From IMG/VR virus record IMGVR_UViG_2700989509_000013: a DNA stretch of 9,417 bases. One strand, 5' to 3'. This document shows, piece by piece, positions 1 through 2,712 of this stretch. This DNA comes from a virus. Its lineage: Duplodnaviria; Heunggongvirae; Uroviricota; Caudoviricetes. The translations under genes and the position numbers were made by a program. How positions within the stretch are numbered: position 1 is the stretch's first letter; each line of letters starts with the position of its first letter. Under the pieces are notes generated by a model. That model was not told the DNA's origin. It did not search any database and saw only the letters and a program-made list of their open reading frames with translations.

Positions 1-142
1 CCACCGCCTGCATCAGTGTGTACGGCGTAATGGCAACCGGTCCGCCGTATGGCTGCCAGCCCTCTTTCAGTTTGTGTGTCAGCTTTTCCGCAAGGTCTGA
101 CGGCGACGCCGCCCTGACAACATCATAATGTTTAATCGACAT
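1..142 (-). CDS. DUF1737-like small phage protein, 5' portion only (start at 142, continues past window start)
   Basis: Minus-strand ATG at 140-142 preceded by GGGAGA about 6 nt upstream; translation MSIKHYDVVRAASPSDLAEKLTHKLKEGWQPYGGPVAITPYTLMQAV matches the remembered DUF1737 pattern (…GWQ.YGGP……QAV). Open to the window edge. Confidence 0.55.
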   Translation of the reverse strand, partial: MSIKHYDVVRAASPSDLAEKLTHKLKEGWQPYGGPVAITPYTLMQAV

Positions 143-255: not shown

Positions 256-456
256 GAAAATAAAGGGATAACGATGATAGTTTGAGAAAAACAGAAATAA
301 CACTTTTGTGGCAAAGCATGGTGCCGGGTGCCTCCCGGTGAATTCAGTATCAGCACCTGAATCCGCGATTACCCCATATTCCTTCTTGCTGATTGCCCCA
401 CCGCACAGGGGGATTCACCATGCAGAAGTGTTTTTAATAAACAGCAAACAAAAAAA

Positions 457-624
457 TCAAGCATTATGCAGGCTGTTTCTTTTTATCACCGGCCACAGCA
501 ATACCATAATGCCGCAGACCAGCACCCCATCCGCCAGCACCGACATGATTCTGCTGGTGAAATCCACCATCACCACCAGAAACAGCAGGAGTGCAGCCAC
601 AGTCAGGCGCAGTTTTACCGTCAC
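457..624 (-). CDS. Hypothetical small membrane protein, 55 aa, two predicted TM helices (not in the supplied ORF track)
   Basis: GTG start at 622-624 overlaps the TerB-like TGA stop (GTGA); GGAG lies 8 nt upstream. Translation MTVKLRLTVAALLLFLVVMVDFTSRIMSVLADGVLVCGIMVLLWPVIKRNSLHNA has two hydrophobic stretches and a short basic tail. Internal ATGs would give 37- or 29-aa products. Confidence 0.35.
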   Translation of the reverse strand: MTVKLRLTVAALLLFLVVMVDFTSRIMSVLADGVLVCGIMVLLWPVIKRNSLHNA

Positions 625-1053
625 AGGTGATTCTCCAGACGAAGACCCAGAACACCGGCAATCTCTTCCAGCACCTTGCGCTCTTCCGGCTCAATTTCGC
701 CGTCTGCCTCCGCAATGGCCACCGCCACATCCAGCACATCTTCCGCTTCACGCGTATCGTGTTTCACATCCTCGATCTCACGTAACGCCGCACGACGACC
801 AGTTTTAAAGTTCGTATCCAGCTGACCGATAATGGTTGCGCTAATCGCATTAATTTCTGACGTAAACGCGTACAGCGCAGGCTGATTACGCAGTACCTGT
901 TCGATCTTCGCTTTCTAGGAAGCCTCACATTCACCATCTGCATAGGCCACCAGGTATGCGGCGTTAATCACCACCTGTGCCAAATCGCGTTTTTCAAACT
1001 TTTTAATTTCCGTTGCCGCTCTGCGGGCTTTTTTTACCAAAAATACCAAACAT
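621..1053 (-). pseudogene. TerB-like (tellurite-resistance TerB family) gene, disrupted by a frameshift and an in-frame amber stop
   Basis: ATG at 1051-1053 reads MFGIFGKKSPQSGNGN then stops. The main frame (…EIKKFEKRDLAQVVINAAYLVAYADGECEAS*KAKIEQVLRNQPALYAFTSEINAISATIIGQLDTNFKTGRRAALREIEDVKHDTREAEDVLDVAVAIAEADGEIEPEERKVLEEIAGVLGLRLENHL) is offset by one base at the T7 run 1029-1035 and contains TAG at 915-917 (plus-strand cta). Span 433 nt is not a multiple of 3. Confidence 0.6.
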
Positions 1054-1185: not shown

Positions 1186-1209
1186 AAAAAAGGCCCGCAA
1201 AAGCGAGCC
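1186..1209 (-). terminator. Rho-independent terminator downstream of the tRNA cluster (minus strand)
   Basis: Minus-strand hairpin: 7-bp stem (1192-1198 with 1203-1209, one G-U), UUUU loop, followed by a U6 tract (plus A-run 1186-1191). Confidence 0.5.
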
Positions 1210-1225
1210 GGGAAAATAAGTGTAG

Positions 1226-1299
1226 CGCGTTGTACTGGAGTCGAACCAGTGACCGATTGCTTAGAAGGCAATTGCTCTGTCCTGCTGAGCTAACAACGC
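1226..1299 (-). tRNA. tRNA-Arg (anticodon UCU)
   Basis: Clean cloverleaf on the minus strand: acceptor GCGTTGT/ACAACGC, D-arm GCTC/GAGC, anticodon stem ATTGC/GCAAT with loop CTTCTAA, T-arm ACTGG-TTCGACT-CCAGT. CCA not encoded. Confidence 0.9.
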
Positions 1300-1312
1300 A
1301 GAATACCGATAA

Positions 1313-1388
1313 TGGACCACCACCGGGGACTCGAACCTCGCACACTCAACTTAAAGGGTTGACGCTCTTTCCTGATGGCTAGTGGCGG
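1313..1388 (-). tRNA. tRNA-like gene, structurally degenerate (possible pseudo-tRNA; anticodon loop CCUUUAA would read UUU)
   Basis: Acceptor CCGCCAC/GTGGTGG pairs (one G-U) and CCA is encoded; anticodon stem TCAAC/GTTGA is perfect. D-stem has only 2 pairs (GCCA vs GAGC), T-stem has an A-C mismatch, position 33 is C not U, discriminator is U. Confidence 0.45.
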
Positions 1389-1389
1389 T

Positions 1390-1465
1390 TGGTGGCCCTT
1401 GCTGGATTTGAACCAGCGACCTGGCGATTATGAGTCGCTCGCTCTCACCACTGAGCTAAAGGGCC
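1390..1465 (-). tRNA. tRNA with anticodon CAU (Ile2/Met type, ileX/ileZ-like), CCA encoded
   Basis: GGCCCTTTAGCTCAGTGGTGAGAGCGAGCGACTCATAATCGCCAGGTCGCTGGTTCAAATCCAGCAAGGGCCACCA: 7-bp acceptor, GCTC/GAGC D-stem, loop CTCATAA, T-arm GCTGG-TTCAAAT-CCAGC. Closely resembles remembered E. coli ileX. Confidence 0.9.
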
Positions 1466-1660: not shown

Positions 1661-2350
1661 TCAATCTACTTTTGCAACACTTTGCTTTGAAAATGCCGCC
1701 TTTTGTTTTGAACGTGTTCTCATTACAAACAATAAAGCCTCACTATCCAGTCGGTGAAAAATGTGTTTCATTGCAACCCAGTGACGAGTAAATGTTTTGG
1801 ACCAGTTTTTAGTTGTCACTCCCGCCAGTAATGCCAGCTCCTGATATTCATAACCTTCCCCACCAAAAAGTTCTGCTTTTACTGCCTGCGCCGCCAGCCA
1901 GATTAATTTTTTCAGGCGTTCCTGCGTTTTCCCAGCAATTTTTCTGGTACCGGATTGAGTATTAAATTCATTCCACGCCCACTGTGTTATCGCGATCTGA
2001 TATTCCCAACAAATACTCCCGCTGTAACACCACAACAACCAGGCTTTATGATGTTCTTCAAGAGACAGAACAGCCCGCCGCCACGATGATGTCGAAAACT
2101 CAACCGGACTGACCAGAGGAATTGACGTCACCTTCGCCAGCGATTGCTTTCCCGGGATTGGTGGATTATCCCGCGTTATCATTTTTCCAGTCACTTCATC
2201 GCGGTACCGGATTTTTTTTCGCCTGTAACGCCCTGTATCGAACATGGCATTCTCCTGCCAGGCTTCAAGCTGACCTTTTGTTGCCCCACTCAAATCAGCG
2301 GTGGCGATAATGAGCTGCTCACGCACAAACTGTAAATAGTGGTTATTCAT
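1661..2350 (-). CDS. Putative late antiterminator Q-like protein (229 aa from ATG 2350)
   Basis: Intact ORF directly downstream of rusA with ATGA stop/start overlap at 2347-2350, followed by terminator and tRNAs as in lambdoid Q regions. Assignment rests mainly on synteny; family not confirmed by motif. Track start at 2356 is GTG. Confidence 0.5.
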   Translation of the reverse strand: MNNHYLQFVREQLIIATADLSGATKGQLEAWQENAMFDTGRYRRKKIRYRDEVTGKMITRDNPPIPGKQSLAKVTSIPLVSPVEFSTSSWRRAVLSLEEHHKAWLLWCYSGSICWEYQIAITQWAWNEFNTQSGTRKIAGKTQERLKKLIWLAAQAVKAELFGGEGYEYQELALLAGVTTKNWSKTFTRHWVAMKHIFHRLDSEALLFVMRTRSKQKAAFSKQSVAKVD

Positions 2351-2712
2351 GCGCACTCCAGTTCTGTGATTTTTATCCCCAGCCGCCCACCAGGAACGAG
2401 CTGACCGCGCACAATATTGATTTCATCAAACTGCTCGTCGTCTATGAGAAGTCCGGCATGCGTCAGCACATCCAGTGGTGCTTTCAGGATATTGTCCAGG
2501 TCACGACGGCGCTTATCCGGTGGCTCTGCAATAATCTTTATCACCAGCCTTCCGGACAGGTTTAATTTCAGCCGCTGCTGGCGAACAATTAGCGCCACAT
2601 CACGGCGATAACGCTTTCCGGCTTCCGAGATGAAATACGTATTGCCATGACGTCGCCAGTAGGTATTCACCGTCGGCGGGTAAGGCAAAACAAATTCTAT
2701 CCGTTCAGTCAT
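2347..2712 (-). CDS. rusA: Crossover junction endodeoxyribonuclease RusA (Holliday junction resolvase)
   Basis: 121-aa product MTERIEFVLPYPPTVNTYWRRHG…DKRRRDLDNILKAPLDVLTHAGLLIDDEQ… matches remembered RusA (acidic catalytic motif, size). ATG at 2712 abuts the DUF968 stop at 2713-2715. Confidence 0.9.
   Translation of the reverse strand: MTERIEFVLPYPPTVNTYWRRHGNTYFISEAGKRYRRDVALIVRQQRLKLNLSGRLVIKIIAEPPDKRRRDLDNILKAPLDVLTHAGLLIDDEQFDEINIVRGQLVPGGRLGIKITELECA

Follow-up and report, generated by a model that had tools for sequence, protein, structure and literature searches.

Introduction

Phage P1 encodes a TerB-like protein, TciA, whose gene is followed by that of a small DUF3927-type membrane protein, TciB, and by a third gene, tciC. 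These genes are intact and belong to a plasmid prophage rather than to a Q-dependent late operon. The Tci names refer to resistance to tellurite or colicins, or to the inhibition of cell division, and a note in the P1 record states that the function is assigned by homology only. The P1 cassette adjoins a tRNA gene (tRNA-Ile2, after tciC; L182/L184), and in the unrelated Erwinia jumbo phage ChrisDB (L183) tRNA-Cys precedes tciA; the linkage of tciA-tciB to tRNA genes may be non-random. A more distant relative is TerB of the terZABCDE tellurite-resistance operon, for which a structure has been solved (2JXU).

Intact tciA genes are also found in phages JLK-2012 (JQ347801), Evi and PPyecE_EH1910, where they are 432 nt long. 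In JLK-2012, tciA and tciB follow the late antiterminator gene Q and three tRNA genes (Asn, Thr and Gly) and precede a yjhS/nanS-p-like gene and the holin gene. The Stx2a phage F349 has Q first, then ileZ-argN-argO, stx2A, stx2B and a large nanS-p-like gene.

Here, we describe a tciA-tciB locus in a window of 9,417 nucleotides, the whole stretch of DNA analysed, from the tailed-phage record IMGVR_UViG_2700989509_000013 of IMG/VR. A sequence-only reading had noted a TerB-like cargo gene with two independent lesions. We conclude, with a probability of roughly 85%, that the tciA of the window is a non-functional allele that arose by two-step inherited decay and lies within a lambdoid prophage's late operon, in the place occupied by stx2AB in Stx phages.

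Organization of the late region

The features of the locus are collected in Table 1. The minus-strand gene order starts with YdaT, DUF977, Hok/Gef, DUF968, RusA and Q, after which a promoter-like site and a hairpin terminator are found. Further 3' lie three tRNA-like genes, a second terminator, tciA, tciB, an STnc100 small RNA and the start of a DUF1737/SASA gene. Contigs with an identical backbone continue with DUF1737/SASA, holin, lysozyme and Rz genes (L185).

Table 1. Features of the tciA-tciB locus and its surroundings (window positions).
Feature	Position	Strand	Remarks
nanS-p-like esterase gene (DUF1737/SASA), 5' end	1..142	-	runs off the window
STnc100 small RNA (RF02076)	280-452	-	3' of tciB and 5' of the nanS-p-like gene; 100.8 bits (gathering score 47)
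tciB (DUF3927, 55 aa), intact	457..624	-	GTG start overlaps the tciA TGA stop (GTGA)
tciA pseudogene (TerB family)	621..1053	-	ancestral ATG at 1053 to TGA 623-621
In-frame amber TAG	915..917	-	GAG (Glu46) in intact homologues
Residual ATG-frame ORF	1003..1053	-	16 codons, MFGIFGKKSPQSGNGN, then TAA 1005-1003
A7 homopolymer	1029..1035	-	T7 on the plus strand; A6 in intact ATG-start homologues
TTG, main frame	1047..1049	-	4 nt 3' of the ATG; N-terminus MVFLVKK
Terminator-like hairpin with T-run	1192..1209	-	between tRNA-Arg and tciA
tRNA cluster 5' of tciA	1225..1465	-	corresponds to ileZ-argN-argO of Stx phages
tRNA-Arg TCT	1299-1225	-	ARAGORN, confirmed by Rfam
Degenerate tRNA-like element	1388-1313	-	called tRNA-Lys(TTT) by ARAGORN
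tRNA, CAT anticodon	1465-1390	-	ARAGORN, confirmed by Rfam
Late antiterminator Q	1661..2356	-	Pfam Phage_antiter_Q, E=1e-90

The locus thus has the surroundings of stx2AB: it lies 3' of Q, the pR'/tR' region and an ileZ-argN-argO-type tRNA cluster, and 5' of nanS-p and the lysis genes. The sequence-only reading had placed the gene in the stx-equivalent slot between the Q/tRNA region and the lysis genes, and the match to Stx2a_F349 and to the identical-backbone contigs bears this out. By location, tciA therefore qualifies as cargo (a moron) of a lambdoid prophage. It differs from stx2AB in that it is unrelated to Shiga toxin and is a pseudogene. A scan of the gene strand for sigma-70-like promoters between the hairpin at 1192..1209 and the tciA ATG found none, and expression of tciA probably depends on Q-mediated read-through.

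The middle tRNA-like element gave no Rfam tRNA match at E<=1 and is left unannotated by PGAP in L001, where the sequence is identical; in the PPompW phage records it is entered as tRNA-Lys. It occupies the place of argN (tRNA-Arg TCG) of Stx phages, with many differences from argN, and is probably a degenerate argN. About 80 nt 5' of the tciA ATG there is a poly-G tract (1136-1142; C7 on the plus strand, G7 in the gene sense), the length of which ranges from about G6 to G11 among the near-identical loci L001-L003.

The Q-tRNA segment (1190-1700) is 99.8% identical to that of the PPompW prophages (L136), whose records share the LC5678xx series with those of several Stx2a phages. The PPompW prophages have ISEc20 after the tRNAs and are without tciAB, nanS-p and lysis genes. 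The window is therefore mosaic: its early/Q region is PPompW-like, and its late module carries tciAB. When the entire window was compared with complete E. coli genomes, no record covered at least 80% of it; the same prophage is contained in draft assemblies, found by exact protein look-up.

Identity of the cassette

The ATG of tciA (1053-1051) has an AAGGA motif 8 nt upstream, and the allele is 433 nt long versus 432 nt in the intact homologues. When one A is removed from the homopolymer and TAG is read as Glu, a protein of 143 amino acids results. The Pfam TerB profile (PF05099) matches this repaired translation over residues 31-138 with 54.2 bits (E=2e-14; gathering score 24.4 bits), and phrog_632, 'tellurite resistance', matches it end to end (1-143/143, E=3e-68). 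The earlier assignment to a TerB-like family is thus upheld, and the profile search identifies the repaired product as a full-length TerB/TciA protein. The similarity to 2JXU is distant (phmmer E=6e-7, residues 15-137); the domain is the same, but the window is without the other ter genes and its copy cannot encode the domain. In NCBIfam only a sub-threshold DjlA-like similarity was found, and PADLOC returned no defence-system match for TciA or TciB.

Directly after tciA, tciB is matched by Pfam DUF3927 (E=1.7e-16) and by phrog_1470, 'TciB-like' (E=2e-29); its exact protein is present on 995 contigs. The locus is thus the phage tciA-tciB cassette: the TciA matches are accompanied by a DUF3927/TciB gene that overlaps the tciA stop.

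Among the described cassettes, that of JLK-2012 is very similar, with 94% DNA identity over the cassette, 98% identity between its TciA and the repaired translation, and the same overlap of tciA stop and tciB start; it differs in its own tRNA set and in encoding an intact protein of 143 amino acids from the ATG. TciA of P1 is 41-51% identical to the repaired protein over its full length, and Asp39, Gly40, Glu46, Asp117, Gly118 and Glu124 are conserved in it.

The exact repaired protein is absent from a collection of 15 billion proteins. The nearest intact allele (L007), the protein of which is found on one contig only, differs from the window in the run length and five substitutions and in nothing else.

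The two interruptions of tciA

The reading frame opened by the ATG is closed early, and it meets the frame that encodes the TerB domain at the A7 run. Because of the extra A, the ATG and the domain are in different frames. The +1 frame is open from 1052 to the TGA at 623-621, with the TAG at 917-915 as its single interruption. With one A removed, the N-terminus reads MFGIFGKKARRAATEIKKFEKRDL..., which equals the N-terminus of intact phage TciA. A second reading of the sequence agreed with all positions given earlier for the ATG frame, the T7 run, the amber codon and the predicted N-terminus, including the end of the ATG frame after 16 codons through the offset at the run.

Comparison with intact homologues, which use the same ATG and have GAG at codon 46, places both changes on the side of the window. 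JLK-2012 has GGTAAAAAAGCC (A6) where the window has A7, and GAG where the window has TAG, so that the difference in run length and the replaced codon proposed from the window alone are both seen. Evi and PPyecE_EH1910 have another N-terminal sequence, FKKKTRR, without an A run. In an alignment of seven homologues with identities down to 41%, including P1 TciA and the Erwinia jumbo phage protein, the start MFG(I/L/F).. from the ATG is kept and Asp39, Gly40 and Glu46 are invariant. The ATG with A6 would be the ancestral state, because this N-terminus is conserved down to 41% identity. Both A7 and TAG are departures from intact homologues at 93-98% identity, and the pattern that they form is not due to chance.

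The protein has two DGx5E motifs, ADGECEASE and ADGEIEPEE, and Glu46 is the glutamate of the first. The amber codon at this position cuts off residues 46-143, and with them almost all of the TerB domain, and leaves the window with no uninterrupted TerB frame containing both motifs. At most, peptides of 16 amino acids from the ATG and 44 amino acids from the TTG can be made. No TerB domain is produced, because the domain spans residues 31-138; Pfam TerB membership belongs to the repaired translation and to no product that the window can encode. Re-initiation after the TAG was considered and rejected: the first in-frame start is the GTG at 767, and the resulting C-terminal ORF of 48 amino acids is too short for the domain.

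This 48-residue ORF (621-767, minus strand) is found on 802 contigs as a 'TerB family' protein. The family phrog_3920, 48 positions long and of 'unknown function', is formed by the same fragment; it is a database family built from pseudogene fragments.

An inherited state

Some sequencing chemistries commonly misjudge the length of homopolymers, and the small distance to the intact allele of L007 might suggest that a miscalled run and a base error conceal an intact gene. The replication of the sequence argues strongly against this. Positions 457-1220 of the window (764 bases) are 100% identical in five independent draft assemblies, and both A7 and TAG are present in L001-L003, complete genomes of different serotypes, with complete genomes carrying both changes coming from different laboratories. 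Of 5,426 complete E. coli genomes, 805 carry tciA, with a median of four copies each and 2,778 copies in all. An exact 55-mer with TAG occurs in 577 complete E. coli records and an exact 90-mer with A7 in 555, the longer query having been used to include more unmasked flank, as the run itself is A/T-rich. Sequencing or assembly error is effectively refuted, with a probability close to nil.

A7 and TAG are inherited; read error is excluded because the two changes are identical in five assemblies and recur in hundreds of complete-genome records. The preference for decay over a read error, expressed earlier on the grounds that two lesions were seen, is supported here by independent genomes. As in an inherited pseudogene, tciA is disrupted relative to intact close homologues, and the disruptions are reproduced in independent assemblies.

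Unequal weight of the run and the amber codon

The sequence-only reading had treated the two changes as independent lesions of the same standing. For the TAG this holds, as it is a clear nonsense lesion. The A7 run is of uncertain effect and does not have equal weight. The sequence-only reading had named intact homologues with the same frame arrangement as what would refute it; such homologues exist for the A7 run, but not for the TAG.

In the absence of TAG, an A7 allele has an uninterrupted ORF of 142 codons from the TTG, with the N-terminus MVFLVKK. Four exact 142-residue proteins of the A7+GAG type are present on at least 993, 824, 306 and 184 contigs (over 2,300), and NCBI names them as intact members of the TerB family, one of them in a MULTISPECIES entry of RefSeq; for comparison, ATG-start forms of TciA are found on 653, 118 and 103 contigs. 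Pattern scans of IMG/VR with identical ascertainment gave 44 A6+GAG, 16 A7+GAG, 31 A7+TAG and 2 A6+TAG alleles, that is, 47 A7 alleles versus 46 A6 alleles.

The contig counts are one reason to consider that A7 alleles are normal and functional, with translation starting at the TTG at 1049-1047, and that the TAG alone breaks tciA. PGAP starts the coding sequence at this TTG in the near-identical loci L001-L003 (a 429-nt coding sequence, differing from the window by one to three substitutions in the TTG-start stretch), and labels TAG-bearing copies as pseudogenes with an 'internal stop' only. Nine A7+GAG haplotypes in IMG/VR keep the ORF open, and the N-terminal change leaves the TerB domain (residues 31-138) untouched. 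However, an open ORF proves little at such low divergence, and it is the ATG-start N-terminus that is conserved down to 41% identity. The ATG, 8 nt after the AAGGA, should capture ribosomes into a dead-end ORF of 16 codons that overlaps the TTG, while the TTG, which is weak as a start codon and has the Shine-Dalgarno sequence about 12 nt away, would be expected to initiate poorly. Among private variants, the A7+GAG alleles have four nonsynonymous (V35E, I70M, D117E and R125C) to three synonymous changes, and Asp117 and Arg125 are in or beside the second DGx5E motif. The nonsynonymous to synonymous ratio of private variants is 6:5 over all lesion-bearing alleles versus 5:20 for intact ones, a weak signal of relaxed constraint (Fisher p=0.056; the sites are few and the sequences recombine). 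We regard a single-lesion history as plausible, at somewhat less than even odds.

A7 is thus an older, widespread allele state of uncertain effect, and TAG is the sole unambiguous lesion. As judged from the sequences, A7 is somewhat more likely than not to be strongly reducing or null for tciA; that it is tolerated is a real possibility to which we give less than an even chance. An unlikely alternative is that the run at codons 7-8 is a length-variable A6/A7 switch, operating through slipped-strand phase variation or slippage-dependent expression and tuning the cargo of the stx slot. If true, it would explain both the common A7 state and the open 142 codons.

Possible recoding of the interrupted gene

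Expression of tciA in spite of both changes would require that ribosomes slip by +1, or that transcription slips, at A7, together with read-through of the TAG, possibly aided by the phage tRNAs upstream. Some elements for this are in place: on the A run of lysine codons, tRNA-Lys can shift by +1 and pair again, AAA to AAA, and this would recreate exactly MFGIFGKKARR; A7 alleles are very widespread; and three tRNA-like genes lie 170-410 nt upstream of tciA. The signals of programmed frameshifting are not. Because a +1 shift is needed, the A run provides no in-register -1 X_XXY_YYZ site, the 0-frame codon that follows it is AGC, neither a stop nor obviously rare, and the 79 nt downstream fold no better than shuffled sequences (z = -0.38), so that no stimulatory RNA structure was detected. 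A -1 frameshift was rejected on the register of the run.

Read-through presents a further obstacle. None of the adjacent tRNAs (CAT, the degenerate TTT-like element and TCT) has a CTA anticodon, and the amber codon is at an invariant glutamate, which a suppressor would have to restore. Read-through by a suppressor tRNA was rejected on the anticodons reported by ARAGORN (CAT, TTT and TCT), with Rfam confirming only the two flanking tRNAs. Low-level +1 or transcriptional slippage on A7, if it occurs, would not bypass the TAG. The larger share of nonsynonymous change in lesion-bearing alleles also speaks against a maintained product, and we consider recoding very improbable.

Proposed history and spread

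We favour two-step inherited decay. In a first step, an A would have been added to the A6 run at codons 7-8. The resulting A7 would break the link between the TerB frame and the ancestral ATG with its Shine-Dalgarno sequence, leaving a 142-codon ORF that could be entered only from the poorly placed TTG. In a second step, on the A7 background, a G-to-T transversion would have changed the GAG of the invariant Glu46 to TAG. The doubly altered allele would then have spread among lambdoid prophages of EHEC-type E. coli, by descent and by recombination between prophages. The most economical history runs from A6/GAG to A7/GAG to A7/TAG, followed by spread. The two changes, their inheritance, their prevalence and the loss of the domain are shown by the sequences; the order of the steps, what A7 does to expression and the lack of residual tciA function are inferred.

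One local haplotype is common to all TAG alleles, nearly all of which are on an A7, Thr14-type background, and at least four distinct upstream backbones precede A7+TAG. The two A6+TAG alleles appear to be recombinants, because they have a JLK-type 5' part. Two counterpoints apply. A7 may not be a lesion, in which case tciA would have only one, and tciB is intact with its own GGAG motif; therefore, the cassette is not wholly dead.

Loss of the tciA-tciB cassette looks recurrent, as other copies of tciA and tciB carry independent damage. Three IMG/VR contigs (L049, L059 and L079), with JLK-type A6+GAG alleles, have an independent 1-nt deletion in ATGTTTGG near the start of tciA, ATGTTT-GT instead of ATGTTTGGT, which is a separate 5' frameshift. 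One copy of tciA loses all similarity from about codon 110 onwards, as a truncation or rearrangement would produce. In L001 (NZ_CP027325.1; 369-1405 and 3497-3628), the closest complete-genome relative of the window, tciB is shortened by a TGG-to-TAG stop. Neighbouring genes are decaying there too: DUF968 has a frameshift, and so does the nanS-p-like gene, which IS600 also interrupts. In L188 (GCA_000946755.2, LM996462.1; about 8716-9760), an A7+TAG tciA breaks off at a junction containing N, equivalent to about position 677 of the window, and a second, intact FKKK-type tciA-tciB follows in the same prophage backbone; the arrangement reflects an artefact of scaffolding or else a genuine duplication in tandem.

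Implications

The tciA of the window is an inherited, widely spread pseudogene allele of low novelty. Public annotation already records the gene, the family to which it belongs and its status as a pseudogene, and it is common in prophages of pathogenic E. coli. In the literature on tciA, TerB and lambdoid phages, we found no paper on the A7+TAG allele, only mentions in connection with P1 and in genome announcements.

For annotation, the 44- and 48-residue 'TerB family' proteins of EHEC genomes, together with phrog_3920, are pieces of one broken gene. The very common 142-residue form with a TTG start, listed as intact, carries a frameshift when read from the ancestral ATG; that it is expressed should not be taken for granted. 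For functional work on TerB/TciA of EHEC prophages, in relation to tellurite, colicin or phage resistance, the A6+GAG allele is advisable. The gene offers a small, clean example of the stepwise decay of a prophage cargo gene, and also of one decayed allele spreading over several prophages by recombination.
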